NCBI GenBank assembly: GCA_963715865.1
Contig: OY970280.1
Span: 1,600,001 to 1,664,000 of the forward strand
Direction: 5' to 3'
DNA: 64,000 nt
Origin: Candidatus Bathyarchaeota archaeon
GTDB taxonomy: Archaea; Thermoproteota; Bathyarchaeia; Bathyarchaeales; Bathycorpusculaceae
Shown: positions 5,700 to 45,042 of the stretch, one piece after another
Position numbering within the stretch: position 1 is the first letter of the stretch
How the letters are laid out: every line of letters starts with the position of its first letter
Program-made: the position numbers and the translations under genes
Notes under the pieces: generated by a model
Database searches by the model: none
Told to the model about the DNA's origin: nothing
What the model saw: only the letters and a program-made list of their open reading frames with translations

Positions 5700-6746
5700 T
5701 TGGCTAAACTTTTTTTCCTCTTATCGGGCGAGAGCGAGTCTTTGCCTGCTGCTGAAGTTAAAGCGATACTGGAAGCAGAAGGCTATGGCTATGGGAACGT
5801 TGAAGTTCTCGACCAGACTTTGCGGTTGGAATCAGAGCTCGGCAGCGTCCAAGCAGTGCAGGTTAGAGCAGCGTTCACGAGACTTTGCGCCTTGGAGCTT
5901 TTCAAATCAGACGCCACTGAAACGGAAATTAGTAAAACCGCAAGCAATACTGACTTCAAAGCAGTTTTGAAACCGGGCGAAAGCTTTTCGGTACGGATAA
6001 ACCGCATAAAAAACTACGCGGACCAAGCCATCAACACTATGAGGCTGGAAGGAAAACTGGGAAAAATAATACTGCAACGCACACAAGACACAAAGGTAAA
6101 CCTCAAAAACCCAGACAAAACCTTCATCGGCATAATAACCAACGAAAAACTCGTTTTTGGTTTGAAGCTCACCGAAATCCAAACCAAAACCTTCTCAGAA
6201 CGCAGACCGCGCAAAAAACCGTTCTTCCACCCGTCTGCCATGCCGTCGAAACTTGCCCGTTGCATGGTGAATTTGGCGCATGGAAAAACTGAAGACTTAG
6301 TGCTTGACCCGTTTTGCGGAACAGGCAGCTCGCTTATTGAAGCCACGTACATCGGCTGCAGAGCGTTGGGTGTTGATGCTCAGAGGCGGATGGTTTTGGG
6401 TTGCAGAAAAAACCTGCAGCACTTCAATATCACTGCTGAAGGTTTAGTTTTGGCTGATGCACGCCATTTGCCCTTTACGGAGGTTGATTGTGTTGTTACT
6501 GACCCGCCGTATGGTCGCTCATCAAGCACATTGAAGTCTACGACTAAGCAGTTGGTGCAGGAGGTTTTGGCTTCAGCGCATTGCTTGTTGGGGGTGGGGC
6601 AACGGATTTGTATTGCTTCGCCTAAAACATTAAACATTAAAGCGTTAGGCACGGCGTTGGGGTATAGGCATGTGGAGTCCCATTTCGCCTACGTACATAG
6701 AACGCTAACAAGGGAAATCGCAGTGTTCGAGAAGGTGCATGACTAA
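5700..6746 (+). CDS. trm11: tRNA (guanine(10)-N2)-methyltransferase, THUMP + MTase
   Basis: HPSAM, LDPFCGTGS, TDPPYGR motifs; N-terminal THUMP-like region. Confidence 0.88.
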   Translation: MAKLFFLLSGESESLPAAEVKAILEAEGYGYGNVEVLDQTLRLESELGSVQAVQVRAAFTRLCALELFKSDATETEISKTASNTDFKAVLKPGESFSVRINRIKNYADQAINTMRLEGKLGKIILQRTQDTKVNLKNPDKTFIGIITNEKLVFGLKLTEIQTKTFSERRPRKKPFFHPSAMPSKLARCMVNLAHGKTEDLVLDPFCGTGSSLIEATYIGCRALGVDAQRRMVLGCRKNLQHFNITAEGLVLADARHLPFTEVDCVVTDPPYGRSSSTLKSTTKQLVQEVLASAHCLLGVGQRICIASPKTLNIKALGTALGYRHVESHFAYVHRTLTREIAVFEKVHD

Positions 6747-38819: not shown

Positions 38820-39863
38820 TTATTCAAGTTTTTTTAGTATTTCCCTGTAAACCGTTAAGGCAGTTTTTTCGTCGGTGACTCCTTTTAGGAGCATGCGTCC
38901 ACCATTAAATAAGCTAACTTCATATCCCTTGTAATTGAACATCAGAGCTAAACGCGACTTCAAACGCACATTAAACCGCTTATTTACGACTGGGTATACT
39001 TCATCAAGGTTCAGCTTTAACAGTTTTTCAGGGTTAATGTTAGCTGTATCTTTTCCACAAAGCCAAACAAGCCGCTCACCACCAGCAACCGAAGACAGCG
39101 CACCGTGGCACACAGGGCAGCGGGTGCTTTTTGAAATATCTATGCTGGTGAAATCCATGTCGCTGAAGTCGCAGACTAACAGTTTGCCCTTCAAAGTTGA
39201 GCCGATTCCAGCTAAGAGTTTTATGGTTTCCATAGCTTGCAAAGCGCCGATTATTCCAGTCGTTGCACCTAACACGCCACGAGTGCTGCAAGTTAGCAAG
39301 TCTGAGTCGGAAAGGTTAGGCATCAAACATTCTAAGCATCCAGTTTCAGGCGGAACAAACACCGATAGGTTGCCTTCAATTCCGATGGCTGCTCCGAAAA
39401 CGTATGGAACCTTCAATTTTACGCAGGCACGATTAACAAGGTAACGAGTCACCATGTTATCTAACCCGTCCACAACGCAGTCCACGCCATCTAAAAGGCG
39501 TTCAACATTGCTGGCGTTCACGTTTTCAGGAACTGCTTCAGCCTTGACAAGTGGATTAAGCTCTTGTAAACGTTTTGCTGCCACCTCAGCTTTTGGATAA
39601 TGCAAATCAGCCATTGTGTATAGGATTTGGCGGTGAAGATTCTGCGCCTCAACTGTGTCTTGGTCAATTAAACGAATGTAGCCCACGCCAGCCAAAGCAA
39701 GATAAAGTGAAGAAACCGTGCCCAATCCACCTGCACCGACAACTGCAACTTTAGACTTAGCCAAGCGCAGCTGTCCTTTTTTGCCTAATTCTTTCATTAT
39801 AACTTGGCGACTGCAGAAATCTTTAGCGAACGCTTCCTTTTCTGCCGCATCCACCTTAACCAT
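38820..39863 (-). CDS. HesA/MoeB/ThiF (E1-like) adenylyltransferase
   Basis: VVGAGGLG, DQDTVE..NLHRQ, DGLDN, CLEC...C...C..C. Confidence 0.92.
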   Translation of the reverse strand: MVKVDAAEKEAFAKDFCSRQVIMKELGKKGQLRLAKSKVAVVGAGGLGTVSSLYLALAGVGYIRLIDQDTVEAQNLHRQILYTMADLHYPKAEVAAKRLQELNPLVKAEAVPENVNASNVERLLDGVDCVVDGLDNMVTRYLVNRACVKLKVPYVFGAAIGIEGNLSVFVPPETGCLECLMPNLSDSDLLTCSTRGVLGATTGIIGALQAMETIKLLAGIGSTLKGKLLVCDFSDMDFTSIDISKSTRCPVCHGALSSVAGGERLVWLCGKDTANINPEKLLKLNLDEVYPVVNKRFNVRLKSRLALMFNYKGYEVSLFNGGRMLLKGVTDEKTALTVYREILKKLE

Positions 39864-40088: not shown

Positions 40089-40712
40089 CTAATTGTCTGT
40101 GCCAGAATTTCGAAGCTGATACTGGAGAGCTCTTATGACGGCTTTCTTAAGGTCGTTTTCTCCTTGGTAAGTTCGCATTTTGACCCCGTATTTGTCCAGA
40201 TACTCCATAAGCATTGATGAAAGCACTATGCTATTTTTACTCAGGAACCATAATTTTCCAGCATGCTCACGGAAGAGCGCATGCATAAGTTCCAAGTATT
40301 CGCCTCCGCGTGTTTCCTCTTTGTCTCTTAGCAAGAAAATGACTTGGGCATTCCGCATTAAGACATCCAGCTTTTCGAAAATGGGAAATCTATGGAATTC
40401 TGTGATTTTGTATCTCTTTTTTAGGTAATCATAAACAGTTTTATCGATTCCCTCTTTTTCCAGTTTCAGGTCGTTCATGTCAACGAGCTGATTTTCCTGA
40501 AATATGAAGAGGGTAATTCTGTCCTCGTCTGAAAGTTCTGTCAAAACCTCCACGACATCTGAAAAATACACTTCCACGCCATCAAGCAGCAACGCATATA
40601 CGTTTTCTCCTGAAAAAGTCTTCACTATTTCTTCTTTAACGTTTTCGAGTCGGGCTTTTGTTTGAGGATCAAAACTGCCCAATAGCAAAATTGTGACTAA
40701 GGGTTTGTCCAA
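40089..40712 (-). CDS. Hypothetical protein with nucleoside 2-deoxyribosyltransferase (NDT)/TIR-like fold features
   Basis: TILLLGSF first strand; AQVIFLLRD...TRGGEYLEL.HA resembles the NDT D.v.a.l....GT..El..A motif (by eye). Confidence 0.5.
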   Translation of the reverse strand: MDKPLVTILLLGSFDPQTKARLENVKEEIVKTFSGENVYALLLDGVEVYFSDVVEVLTELSDEDRITLFIFQENQLVDMNDLKLEKEGIDKTVYDYLKKRYKITEFHRFPIFEKLDVLMRNAQVIFLLRDKEETRGGEYLELMHALFREHAGKLWFLSKNSIVLSSMLMEYLDKYGVKMRTYQGENDLKKAVIRALQYQLRNSGTDN

Positions 40713-40725
40713 TCCGATTTCACTG

Positions 40726-40983
40726 CTATTGATCCTCTGTTATCTTCAGGGTTACTATTTTTAAGTTTTCATCCAGTTTCGCTTCGAATCTGCCTTTTCT
40801 CTTTGCTGTTGTTGACAAGAATGGAACAACTTTGAACGAGCCTTTGATAGAATAGGTGTCGTCAACGTTTATTTCGGAGATTTCTATTTCAGCGCTCGCG
40901 TATGCTTCGTTAAGGGCTTCTGAAATCTCTTTTTTCAGTGCGCTTTTGATTTGATATAGTTCATATTTTGTTTGCATTATCAA
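40726..40983 (-). CDS. Small alpha/beta hypothetical protein
   Basis: ORF coupled to the upstream wHTH (4-bp overlap) and 13 bp from the downstream gene. Confidence 0.6.
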   Translation of the reverse strand: MIMQTKYELYQIKSALKKEISEALNEAYASAEIEISEINVDDTYSIKGSFKVVPFLSTTAKRKGRFEAKLDENLKIVTLKITEDQ

Positions 40984-41312
40984 GCAGTCTCCTTAACAGC
41001 TTTGAGGAGATCTTCTCCGATTAGTCTTTTTAGTTCTGAGAGCTTGTCGTTCACGATCTTGTATCTTGGTTGTCCCCTGATGTCAATTTTCGCAATAAAC
41101 CCCGCGCTCATAAGTTCGCCTAGGTGGAAGCTTAGCGTGTTCGGGTTGATGCGGCCTGCCCATTTTTCTATGGCATCCTTCAGTTCAGACCATGTGGCTT
41201 CTTCTTTGGCAGCGATAAATGCGGCGATGAAGCTTCTTAATGGGTTTGCGAATATTTCGCATTTTTTGCTTGCCTGCGCAATTAAGTCTTCGATACTCAT
41301 GTTTAGCACCAA
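40980..41312 (-). CDS. Winged-helix (ArsR-like) regulator
   Basis: FANPLRSFI, TWSELK, NTLSFHLGELMSAGFI, QPRYKI. Confidence 0.82.
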   Translation of the reverse strand: MVLNMSIEDLIAQASKKCEIFANPLRSFIAAFIAAKEEATWSELKDAIEKWAGRINPNTLSFHLGELMSAGFIAKIDIRGQPRYKIVNDKLSELKRLIGEDLLKAVKETA

Positions 41313-41485: not shown

Positions 41486-41860
41486 TTAGAAGGAAGCTTC
41501 GAGTTTTTCTTTGACTTCTTTGATTTTTTTGGTTAGCTCTTCGACTTCCTTTGTGTTGCCTAATGCTTTTTGGCAGTCTCGTGCATAATCTAGTGCGCTG
41601 ACGCCGTACCTGTCGAATCCCTTGTTAAACGAGATTTCTGCGGACTTCATGAAGAGCTCTAGGCTTTTCGTGTAGTCTTTGAGGGCAAAGGCGCATTCGC
41701 CAGCCTTATAGTACATTTCTGCTGAGCCGAAATAGTTCTGCCCTTTGTAGTAGAGTTCAGCCACTTTGACAAAAATGTCCTTCGCTTCAGCGTACTTGGC
41801 GTTTTCCATTAACGCATTGGCATCTTTGTGGAGTTTTATTGGGTCTTCTTTTACGCTCAT
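41486..41860 (-). CDS. TPR/alpha-SNAP-like helical repeat protein
   Basis: Repeated A..Y.KA.E.F/Y helix pairs. Confidence 0.7.
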   Translation of the reverse strand: MSVKEDPIKLHKDANALMENAKYAEAKDIFVKVAELYYKGQNYFGSAEMYYKAGECAFALKDYTKSLELFMKSAEISFNKGFDRYGVSALDYARDCQKALGNTKEVEELTKKIKEVKEKLEASF

Positions 41861-42010: not shown

Positions 42011-43402
42011 TTGATGCTTCGATGCATTCGCTGCGGCGCTGAGTTTTCGGTTTATCCGTTAAGGAGTAACTGTGAAAAATGCGGCGGTACACTGGAATTC
42101 GCAGCAGACTTGCCTGAGGCTGGAAAGTTGAAGTTTTCAGGACCGCAAAGATTCTGGAGATACAAACAGATGCTTCCGCCGGTTAAGCACATGGTCAGTT
42201 TGGGAGAGGGTGGAACACCATTGCATAAAGCGGAAAGGCTTGCCAAAGCAGTCGGATTGAAAGACCTCTATTTGAAGGATGAAACCCGCAACCCCACAAA
42301 CTCCTACAGGGACCGTGCAGCAGCTTTCTTGACATCAAACGCGATTGATCAAGGTTTTGAAGCACTAGTTTGCGCCACTAACGGAAACATGGGAGCTTCT
42401 TTGGCTGCCTACGCCGCAAAAGCAGGACTGATTTGCCATGTCTTAGTCCCCAAAATTGTTGATGTCGGAAAACTAGCGCAGATGATTGCTTACGACGCCG
42501 TCATCGAGGAATCAGGCGACATTGTGGACGATTCCATCCGCAAAGCAGCTGCCTTAGCCAAGGAAACAGGCTGGTACCAAGCCACCGCCGAACTCAACCC
42601 GCTGGTGGTTGAAGCTCAAAAAACCATTTCGTATGAAATTTATGAGCAGTTTGCGGTTCCTGACTGGGTTATCGTTTCGATGGGAAGCGGTGGAACCATC
42701 TATTCTCTTTGGAAAGGCTTCAAAGAACTCAAACAGCTAGGGCTGACCAACTCGTTACCGCGAATGGTAGGAGTTCAGACTGAAGGCTGCGCTGTCATAG
42801 TTAACAAATTGACAAAACCATCATCTTCAAAATCTTGTAGCCTGTCCACACGTGCCCTAGCTATTCTCGTAGGCGAACCATTACAAAGCGAATTGGCAAT
42901 CAAAGCAATCCAAGAATCAAACGGCTTAGCTTTAACCGTCTCAGACGTGGACATTCTGGCTGCAGAGCTTCAAGTCGCTAAACTTGAAGGAGTCTTCGCC
43001 GAACCCGCAAGCTCAGCCACCGTGGCAGCATTGCATACGCTGAAAGCTGACCGAATTTCCAGCGACCGCAGCGTAGTCTGCCTCATCACTGGGAGCGGGC
43101 TTAAAGCGACCGATGTTCTGCAGGCGTTGACGAAAAAACAGAAAGCAGCAGGCTTAGGACTTGCAGTAAGTACAAAGCAAAAAATCCTCAAAATCCTAAG
43201 CGAAAAGGACACTTATGGATATTATTTGTGGAAGCAACTGGGGCAGATAATGACTCGTGCCGCTGTGTATCAGCATCTTAATGAGTTGGCGGATAGGGGG
43301 TTGGTGGTTGGTTATGAGGAGAATGGCAAGAAGTTTTTCCGCATTACTGAGCGCGGTAAGAAGGTTTTGGCGGCTTTTGGCGAGATCCAACTGCTTATGT
43401 GA
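42011..43402 (+). CDS. Threonine-synthase-like domain (PLP Lys replaced by Arg) fused to a C-terminal PadR-like winged helix
   Basis: N-terminal Zn ribbon, SLGEGGTPL, NPTNSYRDR, GSGG, EPASSA, TGSGLK; then KILKILSEKDTYGYYLWKQL...VYQHLNELADRGLV...FRITERGK. Confidence 0.88.
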   Translation: MMLRCIRCGAEFSVYPLRSNCEKCGGTLEFAADLPEAGKLKFSGPQRFWRYKQMLPPVKHMVSLGEGGTPLHKAERLAKAVGLKDLYLKDETRNPTNSYRDRAAAFLTSNAIDQGFEALVCATNGNMGASLAAYAAKAGLICHVLVPKIVDVGKLAQMIAYDAVIEESGDIVDDSIRKAAALAKETGWYQATAELNPLVVEAQKTISYEIYEQFAVPDWVIVSMGSGGTIYSLWKGFKELKQLGLTNSLPRMVGVQTEGCAVIVNKLTKPSSSKSCSLSTRALAILVGEPLQSELAIKAIQESNGLALTVSDVDILAAELQVAKLEGVFAEPASSATVAALHTLKADRISSDRSVVCLITGSGLKATDVLQALTKKQKAAGLGLAVSTKQKILKILSEKDTYGYYLWKQLGQIMTRAAVYQHLNELADRGLVVGYEENGKKFFRITERGKKVLAAFGEIQLLM

Positions 43403-43435
43403 TTGATTGTTGTTGTTTTGGTAACATTTATTAGA

Positions 43436-43457
43436 TAGTATAGCTGCAACTATACTA
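43436..43457. promoter_or_regulatory. Perfect palindromic operator TAGTATAG-N6-CTATACTA directly upstream of BRE/TATA (AAAG-TTATAA) of the ECF gene
   Basis: 8-bp exact inverted repeat; TATA-like element at 43461-43466; ATG at 43485. Confidence 0.7.
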
Positions 43458-43484: not shown

Positions 43485-44021
43485 ATGCAACCCAAACCCG
43501 ACCAAAAAGGAGTCACCCTCAAAATTGCACTGGCGGGAATTATGGCAGCCCTTGTTGCAGTAGCCACCCTCTTATTTGTGGTTCCTATCCCAGCCACCAG
43601 CGGATACTTCAACCTTGGCGAGACACTCATCTACATAGCAGCATTACTTTTGGGACCACTAGTAGGTGCAACAGCAGGTGCAGGAGCAACAATAGCCGAT
43701 ATTCTTGTAGCCGCACAGTTTGCTCCAGGAACCTTTACAATTAAAGCAATCGAAGGTTTCCTTGTTGGCTTCTTAAACAAGAAACTAAACAAAAAGACCC
43801 GAAGCATCACTTTGAGCGCCACAGTAGCGATTGTTATTGGTGGCTTTGAGATGGTTTTAGGATACTTCCTCTACGAACAACTTGTCTTAGGCTATCCTTT
43901 CGCTTTGGCACTGGTTGAGGTTCCCTTTAACATTGTACAGATGCTAATCGGCTTATTAGTAGCCATCCCTGTCATGCACGCGGTTTTACGTGTTTTCCCA
44001 CAGCTTAAAAGCATGGTTTGA
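43485..44021 (+). CDS. ECF transporter S component (HmpT/PdxU2-like)
   Basis: AGIMAALV, PIPATSGYFNLGE, LLLGP..G, IADI, APGTFTIKAIEG; about 5-6 TM helices. Confidence 0.85.
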   Translation: MQPKPDQKGVTLKIALAGIMAALVAVATLLFVVPIPATSGYFNLGETLIYIAALLLGPLVGATAGAGATIADILVAAQFAPGTFTIKAIEGFLVGFLNKKLNKKTRSITLSATVAIVIGGFEMVLGYFLYEQLVLGYPFALALVEVPFNIVQMLIGLLVAIPVMHAVLRVFPQLKSMV

Positions 44022-44034
44022 CAGAGGATTATCT

Positions 44035-45042
44035 ATGAAACTTCCGCCTGGAAAAATCCCCATAAACATCCTAAAAGAAGTAGTATTCAAAAACCTTGGC
44101 GCCGAACGCAGCGAAGTAGTTTTAGGTCCAGCAGCTGGAATAGACGGTGCAGTATTAGATGTTGGAAATAAAAACGTCATTGTCTCCATGGACCCAATCA
44201 CTGGTGCAGTTGAACGCATCGGATGGGAAGCCATTAACATTAACGCGAATGACGTTGCTACTTTCGGGGTTGAACCAGCCTTTTTCTTTTCATGCCTGCT
44301 TTTACCAGAGAACGCGGACAGCAAAATCGTTGAAACCATAAGCACCCAAATGCACAATGCCGCAAAGGAACTCGGCATAGCCATTGTGGGCGGACATTGC
44401 GAGTCAACGCCGGGACTTGCTAATCCTATTGTTGTTGGTTGCATTATGGGCTTAACAGAAAAAGGCAAATACGTGACTGCTGCAGGAGCAAAAACTGGCG
44501 ATAAACTGATTTTGACCAAGAGCGCTGGCATTGAAGGCACTGCAATTTTAGCTTCCGACCGCGAGGCGCAACTGGCAAAAGCCTTCAGCCCCGCAATGCT
44601 TGAGAGTGCCAAGGGCTTCTACAATCAAATAAGCGTAGTAAAAGACGCTTTAACGGCTTATAAAACGGGCGGAGTCCATGCCATGCATGACCCAACCGAA
44701 GGCGGAATACTAAACGGCATCCACGAAATGGCAGACGCCGCAAGCTTAGGTGTCCGCGTTTTTGAGGAAAAAATCACAGTTGAACCTGAAACAGCCAAAA
44801 TCTGCAGGTTCTATGAGATTGACCCGTTGCAACTGATTAGTTCAGGCGCCCTGCTCATTGCTGCAGAGCCGGAAGCCTCAAACAAAATAGTCGACAGTTT
44901 ATGCCAAGAGCACATTTACGCTGATGTGATAGGCGAATTCAACCCAAACATCAACAAACGCTTACTAATGCATAAGGATGATACGGCGGAGATGCTGCCA
45001 AGACCAGTCTCTGACCATTTGTGGCTGGCGTTAACGCGTTAA
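44035..45042 (+). CDS. PurM/AIR-synthase-like (HypE/ThiL/SelD fold) protein
   Basis: GIDGAV, MDPITG, NANDVAT, IVGGHCE, MHDPTEGG, LISSGALL. Confidence 0.88.
   Translation: MKLPPGKIPINILKEVVFKNLGAERSEVVLGPAAGIDGAVLDVGNKNVIVSMDPITGAVERIGWEAININANDVATFGVEPAFFFSCLLLPENADSKIVETISTQMHNAAKELGIAIVGGHCESTPGLANPIVVGCIMGLTEKGKYVTAAGAKTGDKLILTKSAGIEGTAILASDREAQLAKAFSPAMLESAKGFYNQISVVKDALTAYKTGGVHAMHDPTEGGILNGIHEMADAASLGVRVFEEKITVEPETAKICRFYEIDPLQLISSGALLIAAEPEASNKIVDSLCQEHIYADVIGEFNPNINKRLLMHKDDTAEMLPRPVSDHLWLALTR

Follow-up and report, generated by a model that had tools for sequence, protein, structure and literature searches.

A lysine-less threonine synthase-like protein fused to a winged helix is a probable vitamin B6 regulator in Bathyarchaeia

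A 64,000-nucleotide stretch of a Candidatus Bathyarchaeota genome (assembly GCA_963715865.1, contig OY970280.1, positions 1,600,001 to 1,664,000 of the forward strand; below, the window) contains at positions 42011-43402 a gene for a protein of the threonine synthase (ThrC) fold that lacks the Schiff-base lysine and carries a DNA-binding domain at its C terminus. The protein, for brevity called the regulator below, is probably not a threonine synthase. Comparative genomics favors a one-component transcription factor in which the ThrC-like part acts as a dimeric sensor of pyridoxal 5'-phosphate (PLP), vitamin B6 in its active form, and represses genes for B6 uptake and synthesis. The loss of the lysine is tied to the fusion throughout the family, and a conserved palindrome follows the gene and precedes a vitamin transporter operon.

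Loss of the Schiff-base lysine in a ThrC-like protein fused to a winged helix

The open reading frame (ORF) on the plus strand encodes 463 residues from a TTG at 42011 or 462 residues from an ATG at 42014. The ATG is the likelier start, and the resulting 462 residues equal the length of most homologues. Pfam assigned residues 62-361 to the fold-type II PLP enzyme family PALP with an E-value of 4.5e-74 and residues 392-454 to PadR (PF03551) with an E-value of 3e-10 and 40.4 bits against a gathering cut-off of 27, in agreement with the PadR-like winged helix-turn-helix (wHTH) of the original prediction. No GntR or aminotransferase domain was matched in the regulator by Pfam. The regulator begins with a zinc ribbon, and so does the canonical archaeal ThrC encoded by its genome.

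An AlphaFold2 (AF2) model based on a 92-row alignment, with a predicted local distance difference test score (pLDDT) of 90.9, showed two domains, both well folded, with a disordered linker (residues 372-385) between them. In the model the wHTH is built from three helices, then a hairpin of two strands that forms the wing, and a final helix. A Foldseek search with the model gave the threonine synthases 2zsj, 2d1f, 6cgq, and 1v7c as best matches, with TM-scores of 0.81-0.86 by target. A homodimer predicted with PLP along reached an ipSAE interface score of 0.81, compared with 0.00 for the best of three controls; of the proteins solved as pairs of one chain, 20 of 30 attained the mark of 0.81, and of those solved as single chains, 1 of 23 did. 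The homodimer runs shared at least 53% of their contacts, the partner had a pLDDT of at least 84, and the interface was located in the ThrC-like domain, although the predicted pairing may reflect nothing beyond the likeness to solved ThrC dimers.

The regulator was aligned to the solved ThrC structures 2zsj and 2d1f. The Schiff-base motif, NPTGSFKDR in both structures, reads NPTNSYRDR in the regulator, and Arg-100 (codon AGG, 42308-42310) stands opposite their catalytic lysine. The lysine-to-arginine exchange read from the DNA alone is thus upheld by the structural alignment, and so is the claim that other active-site motifs are altered while the fold is retained: ASTGNTS has become ATNGNMG, NPYRIEGQKT has become NPLVVEAQKT, and the phosphate loop VGNAGN has become MGSGGT. 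The residues Thr-88, Asn-154, Ser-155, and Arg-160 (Thermus ThrC numbering), which bind the phosphate of O-phosphohomoserine, align with Met-127, Ala-193, Glu-194, and Val-199/Val-200 of the regulator, and Thr-85 is replaced by asparagine as a further change in the pocket. Retained, on the other hand, are the positions that in Thermus ThrC hold PLP, namely the asparagine at O3', the glycine-rich phosphate loop, and the threonine at N1 in TGSGLK. In 75 cluster representatives of the fused family Gly-125 was kept in all 75, Asn-126 in 68 (aspartate in the remaining seven), Gly-225 in 71, and Gly-227 in 75. In the 92-row alignment Thr-360 was conserved to at least 90% and Gly-363 was invariant, and pocket and wHTH residues in general were nearly invariant. 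The near-invariance of these six residues argues that the cofactor pocket stayed under selection after the lysine had been lost.

A separate canonical thrC, whose existence had been named as a check on the original prediction, is present in the same genome (G000:C1:1773620-1774780), between thrB for homoserine kinase and hom for homoserine dehydrogenase. It keeps the motifs NPTGSFKDR, ASTGNT, and NPFRIEGQK and scores 372.5 bits against the thrC profile TIGR00260. The regulator gene adjoins a vitamin transporter gene and not the thr operon. It is annotated as threonine synthase because its own TIGR00260 score of 195.8 bits passes the cut-off of 167.1; this explains the database name without demonstrating threonine synthase activity.

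Arginine occupies the lysine position (NPTxSYRDR) in 119 of 120 homologues of 76-94% identity, and Arg-100 is therefore neither a chance substitution nor a sequencing error. For the wider family, 1.84 billion cluster representatives (50%-identity clusters) were searched with phmmer and the best 150 matches were taken, 148 of which cover the motif; proteins with a C-terminal extension of 60-110 residues were counted as fused. Among these best matches the lysine is absent from 73 of 75 fused representatives and present in 69 of 73 unfused ones, three of the four unfused exceptions being fragments. Arginine is one of several replacements (Leu in 18, Arg in 17, Ile in 15, Val in 6, Thr in 5, Met in 4, Phe in 3, and Ser, Tyr, Ala, Asn, and His once each). 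The expected conservation of the lysine-to-arginine exchange thus holds for the close homologues, whereas family-wide it is the loss of lysine, often to leucine, isoleucine, valine, or methionine, that tracks the fusion. The PadR profile PF03551 matched 90 of 92 fused family members. In a FastTree phylogeny of the ThrC-like core, computed from an alignment without the lysine column, four changes suffice for the fusion label and four for the lysine label; for the groups that combine fusion and lysine state, 3-6 changes were observed against a mean of about 49-51 in label shuffles. Named fused members come from Bathyarchaeia, Promethearchaeota, Odin-, Baldr-, and Helarchaeota, Aigarchaeota, and a Thermococcus, and every named homologue encountered is labelled threonine synthase. 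One ThrC-like representative of 519 residues (P0254), with valine in place of the lysine, has no C-terminal extension; instead it is about 115 residues longer at the N terminus, which may represent another order of fusion.

The palindrome, the B6 genes behind it, and the neighborhood

The palindrome proposed as a binding site in the original prediction was confirmed and behaves as an operator in comparative genomics. The element TAGTATAGCTGCAACTATACTA at 43436-43457 is composed of 11 + 11 nucleotides, is 91% complementary, and lies 33 bases past the regulator stop codon. It occurs once in its genome, a single contig of 2.35 Mb that is 97.9% complete, and no further site was found there with up to two mismatches and spacers of 4-8. 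A TATA-like box directly precedes it, and 27 nucleotides, including a GG-rich Shine-Dalgarno-like element, lie between its end and the next start codon. From the spacing of about 25 nucleotides that is usual in Archaea between TATA box and start site, the transcription start is expected close to the palindrome's 3' end. With the predicted start at this place, a bound dimer would block initiation.

Seventeen orthologous loci of the same order, with regulators of 54-89% identity, were compared. In 15 of them the palindrome stands at the same place with 0-2 mismatches and an abutting A/T-rich box, giving the operator consensus TAGTAWAG-N6-CTWTACTA. The order of the regulator gene followed by the S component of an energy-coupling factor (ECF) transporter, and usually by a gene for a PurM-fold enzyme, is found in 14 of the 17 loci. 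Two loci (L037, 6419-6457, and L040, reverse strand, 6413-6451) contain an overlapping second copy of the palindrome shifted by 17 bp, and these copies may let two dimers bind side by side.

The site was also found apart from this gene order. In G015 the palindrome follows the regulator gene and is itself followed by pdxS-pdxT and then by the PurM-fold (AIRS) gene. In G019 the regulator retains a palindrome in front of the S-component gene, and a further one, also perfect, is located on a different contig 18 bp before pdxS-pdxT. In G038 the regulator gene does not stand beside the transporter, and the only near-perfect site of the genome lies just before the unlinked S-component orthologue. 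In contrast, the S-component promoter was checked in 17 relatives that have this gene but for which no regulator was found; except in G024, it is without the palindrome, the best matches having 4-6 mismatches. The palindrome is thus present or absent along with the regulator, which indicates that the site travels with the regulator and not with the target gene. In G024 (L116, G024:C8), where the regulator was not found, TAGTATAGTTCTGATTATGCTA with two mismatches precedes the S-component gene and looks like a decaying relic operator.

The first gene behind the palindrome encodes an S component that matches PF07155 with an E-value of 5.8e-29, the Pfam family to which PdxU and PdxU2/HmpT belong (PMC9997740). 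Its sole match among Protein Data Bank sequences is chain S of 4hzu (E-value 7e-14), the HmpT protein shown to transport pyridoxamine (PMC4860826). Judged from these matches the S component is a candidate B6 vitamer transporter. Distant fused family members from Helarchaeota, with serine at the lysine position, and Aigarchaeota, with valine, also stand beside a PF07155 gene, and the transporter from Aigarchaeota shares 37% identity with the S component of the window (43485..44021).

The second gene encodes an enzyme of the PurM/AIRS fold. Its longest ORF begins with a GTG at 43990, and the likely start is an ATG at 44035. The best profile scores were HypE-like (105 bits) and ThiL-like (94.6 bits), both far below cut-off, and assignment as ThiL was rejected, a true thiL of 257 bits being located elsewhere in the genome. 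An orthologue is present in 40 of 41 relatives and adjoins the S-component gene in most. By analogy to bacterial PdxR regulons, in which pdxK would take this place, the PurM-fold enzyme is a candidate for a new B6 vitamer salvage kinase.

Among 41 genomes of the Bathyarchaeia order pdxS was found in three, G015, G019, and G003, the match in G003 containing a stop. All three carry the regulator gene, broken in G003; pdxS adjoins it in G015 and G003 and lies behind the palindrome in G015 and G019. The broken locus (G003:C28:60379-64609; L024, L100) has stops or frame breaks in the regulator gene, the adjacent pdxS, and the PurM-fold gene, and either reflects a decaying B6 locus or a poor assembly (completeness 71%). 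In the own genome of the regulator neither pdxS nor a PF08543 (PdxK/ThiD) kinase was found, and for pdxT there was only a sub-threshold match to the glutamine amidotransferase (GATase) family. Without these genes the organism must import B6, and two EcfT genes for a shared ECF module are present. Most genomes of this Bathyarchaeia order are without pdxS and would depend on imported B6; from gene content, vitamin B6 auxotrophy appears to extend to most of the lineage.

In a Thermococcus (CP015193; L120, 1408-1440) the pdxS-pdxT promoter carries the palindrome GCAAGTTTTAACTTGA directly behind a TATA box. The core of this palindrome, AAGTT-NN-AACTT, is similar to the center of the Bathyarchaeia operator, and the same genome encodes the fused, lysine-less P0133. 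The genome-wide count with up to two mismatches was near the control level, and the only other palindromic match stands before a DUF424 gene that has nitroreductase-family ORFs behind it; this palindrome was not counted as support for the operator. Intergenic inverted repeats in Aigarchaeota and Helarchaeota are imperfect, have other spacings, and were not convincing as operators.

The features of the regulator locus are collected in Table 1. On the other side of the regulator gene and divergent from it, three small co-directional genes occupy 40089-41312 (minus strand) of the window and encode an HTH_20 protein of 110 residues followed by ORFs of 85 and 207 residues, for both of which no Pfam family was found. 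Between this cluster and the regulator gene lies a tetratricopeptide repeat (TPR) gene (41486-41860). The closest relative (L036) has the three-gene cluster as well, and the TPR gene stands beside the regulator gene in five relatives. A ThiF/MoeB-type adenylyltransferase of 347 residues, encoded at 38820-39863 (minus strand), has no known link to the regulator.

Table 1. Features of the regulator locus, in window coordinates
Feature	Position	Strand	Basis
Gene of the ThrC-fold/wHTH regulator (candidate)	42011..43402	+	ORF translation, Pfam, homologue lengths
N-terminal CxxC...CxxC zinc ribbon (Cys5, Cys8, Cys21, Cys24)	42023..42085	+	read from translation
Fold-type II PLP domain, Pfam PALP, residues 62-361	42194..43093	+	closest to solved threonine synthases
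AGG codon, Arg-100, at the place of the Schiff-base lysine	42308..42310	+	structure-sequence alignment, homologues
Flexible linker between sensor and DNA-binding domain, residues 372-385, pLDDT <50	43124..43165	+	AF2 model
PadR-type winged helix-turn-helix, residues 392-454	43184..43372	+	Pfam; fused family members match PF03551
TATA-like box TTTATTA immediately before the palindrome (putative promoter element)	43427..43433	+	
22-bp palindromic candidate operator TAGTATAGCTG/CAACTATACTA	43436..43457	.	comparative genomics
ECF S-component gene, PF07155; candidate B6 vitamer transporter, first predicted regulated gene	43485..44021	+	
PurM/AIRS-fold ATP-using enzyme, second gene of the predicted regulated operon	44035..45042	+	profile scores, relatives

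A proposed B6 repressor and its alternatives

In the proposed mechanism the ThrC-derived domain, being without the lysine, would form no internal aldimine and would not bind O-phosphohomoserine. Its retained pocket for the PLP ring and phosphate would bind PLP, or else a closely similar phosphorylated vitamer of B6, in a non-covalent manner, and dimerization via the ThrC-like domain would present two PadR-type winged helices to the palindrome. With B6 plentiful, the liganded dimer would sit on the operator and block initiation; with B6 scarce, the operator would be free and the operon of S component and PurM-fold enzyme would be expressed. In relatives that make PLP, the same operator would put pdxS-pdxT under the same control. 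The original prediction had left the ligand as either a B6 vitamer or a phospho-amino acid. The PdxU2/HmpT-type S component and the pdxS-pdxT regulon point to the former, and the phospho-amino acid found no support.

Several observations weigh against this reading. That PLP is the ligand, that the protein binds DNA, that it represses, and in which direction it does so are steps that we infer. No copy of the palindrome was found before the regulator gene itself, so that there is no sign of autoregulation via this element. The compared loci are kin, and the 15 loci with a palindrome do not amount to 15 independent observations; the pdxS-pdxT evidence comes from three related genomes that belong to a single genus. 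Most genomes of the own genus keep the S-AIRS operon although no regulator was found in them, so that the control is dispensable. S components of the HmpT/PdxU2 type were first assigned to hydroxymethylpyrimidine (HMP), the pyrimidine of thiamine (PMC4860826), and the transporter alone therefore leaves the ligand unfixed; it is the pdxS-pdxT sites only that settle on B6. No B6 gene was found within 4-5 kb of four other fused members, P0137, P0133 (Thermococcus), P0273 (Odin/Baldrarchaeia), and P0144, surroundings that are uninformative. Finally, P0123 and P0125 are fused, keep the lysine, and belong to the clade nearest to the regulator, so some fused members could still be enzymes.

Of the alternatives, a DNA-binding regulator of the same operon that responds to another ligand survives best, although it is unlikely. 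Such a ligand could be HMP phosphate (HMP-P), an unphosphorylated vitamer, an external aldimine of PLP with an amino acid, or an amino acid. Besides the first assignment of HmpT/PdxU2 to HMP, this explanation is favored by the similar shapes of HMP-P and pyridoxamine 5'-phosphate, by the absence of a ThiD/PdxK-type PF08543 kinase from the own genus, by the distant ThiL-likeness of the downstream enzyme, and by the further changes in the pocket (T85 to Asn, T88 to Met). It is opposed by the true thiL elsewhere in the genome and by the operator before pdxS-pdxT in G015 and G019, every sampled pdxS being tied to the regulator. The conserved G-x-G phosphate loop, Asn-126, and Thr-360 also speak against it and favor a phosphorylated pyridine as ligand.

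That the protein is both enzyme and regulator, in the manner of RbkR, is considerably less probable. PLP-dependent catalysis would in this case perhaps proceed via another residue or from pre-formed external aldimines. The TIGR00260 score above cut-off, the fold, intact at high confidence in the model, and the two related fused proteins with lysine would fit such a bifunctional protein. However, the Schiff-base lysine is missing from nearly all fused representatives, with many aliphatic replacements, the ligands of the substrate phosphate are lost, and the genome contains a full canonical thrC. The other highly conserved lysines of the regulator (Lys-89, Lys-204, and Lys-365) occur only in motifs that canonical ThrC also has. 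The lysine-keeping fused proteins P0123, P0125, and the fragment P0134 have the motifs NPTSSFKDR and NPTNSFKDR and could be one-base reversions from arginine or bifunctional intermediates; P0123 sits on a 1.9-kb contig without gene context.

A decaying or neutral thrC paralogue without regulatory role, the palindrome being bound by another factor, would agree with the patchy occurrence in the genus and the broken copy in G003 but is scarcely credible, because the full-length reading frame is maintained at 54 to 94% identity and in several archaeal phyla, pocket and wHTH residues are nearly invariant, and the palindrome is present where the regulator was found and missing where it was not.

A broader form of the PLP-sensor reading is doubtful, if conceivable: that the lysine-less ThrC-wHTH family, annotated throughout as threonine synthase, is the general B6 regulator of Archaea, which lack MocR/PdxR, from Bathyarchaeia to Asgard archaea, Aigarchaeota, and Thermococci, and that the PurM-fold gene behind the PdxU2-like transporter gene encodes a new B6 vitamer kinase replacing PdxK in these B6-auxotrophic archaea.

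Comparison with known systems

The original prediction presented the protein as a candidate new regulator. The role as a regulator is supported by the sequence comparisons, whereas the architecture as such is already contained in the databases under an enzyme name. The NCBIfam model NF004170 (PRK05638, "threonine synthase") scored the regulator at 396.7 bits, below its cut-off of 421, and aligned with profile positions 2-441 of 442 to residues 3-456, the C-terminal wHTH region included. It thus describes the same architecture from end to end, but its enzyme name does not fit any lysine-less fused member, that is, most of them. No description of a ThrC-wHTH regulator was found in the searchable full-text literature, which leaves out most subscription journals, and it may have been described elsewhere. 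Within the same literature no published archaeal B6 regulator was found, B6 regulators being described only for Bacteria (PdxR/MocR).

If the proposed role is correct, the protein would fill this archaeal gap by an independent invention, a lysine-less fold-type II PLP enzyme serving as sensor, and would be a clear case from nature in which a pseudoenzyme has been put to use for sensing a cofactor. A systematic misannotation as threonine synthase, which inflates thrC counts in archaeal metabolic reconstructions, would be corrected, the operator motif could be used for the prediction of B6 regulons, and the PurM-fold enzyme would be pointed to as a candidate for the missing salvage kinase.

With canonical ThrC (TIGR00260; 2zsj, 2d1f, 1v7c) the regulator shares the fold, the zinc-ribbon N terminus, and a similar predicted dimer interface, and it is 39% identical to 2zsj over about 320 residues. 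It differs in having neither the catalytic lysine nor the O-phosphohomoserine phosphate site and in about 90 extra residues, which form the linker and the wHTH.

Among archaeal vitamin regulators, ThiR combines a ThiN domain with a DNA-binding domain, and RbkR combines a riboflavin kinase with a wHTH and is reported to remain an active enzyme. The regulator resembles both in that a domain of a cofactor-pathway enzyme would serve as the sensor of a one-component regulator of archaeal genes for the uptake and synthesis of the same cofactor; it differs from them in fold, cofactor, and DNA-binding domain.

The closest parallel in design is found in the MocR, GabR, and PdxR proteins, in which a PLP-enzyme fold as effector domain is likewise fused to a winged helix. 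In these proteins the wHTH is N-terminal and of the GntR type, and the effector domain is aminotransferase-like with fold type I; the characterized MocR proteins keep the Schiff-base lysine, whereas the regulator described here has a fold-type II domain derived from ThrC, a C-terminal PadR-type wHTH, and no such lysine. According to PMC5320631, the MocR subfamily is not present in Archaea, and the bacterial PdxR regulon comprises pdxST, pdxK, and pdxU. The predicted regulon of pdxS-pdxT, a PdxU-type transporter, and an ATP-using salvage-type enzyme resembles it as judged by comparative genomics only. The regulator and PdxR/MocR are thus analogous, not homologous, and the regulator would be PdxR-like in its working while standing outside that family. 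The principle of joining a wHTH to a cofactor sensor that descends from an enzyme is familiar from PdxR; new are the fold, the DNA-binding domain, the missing lysine, and the occurrence in Archaea.

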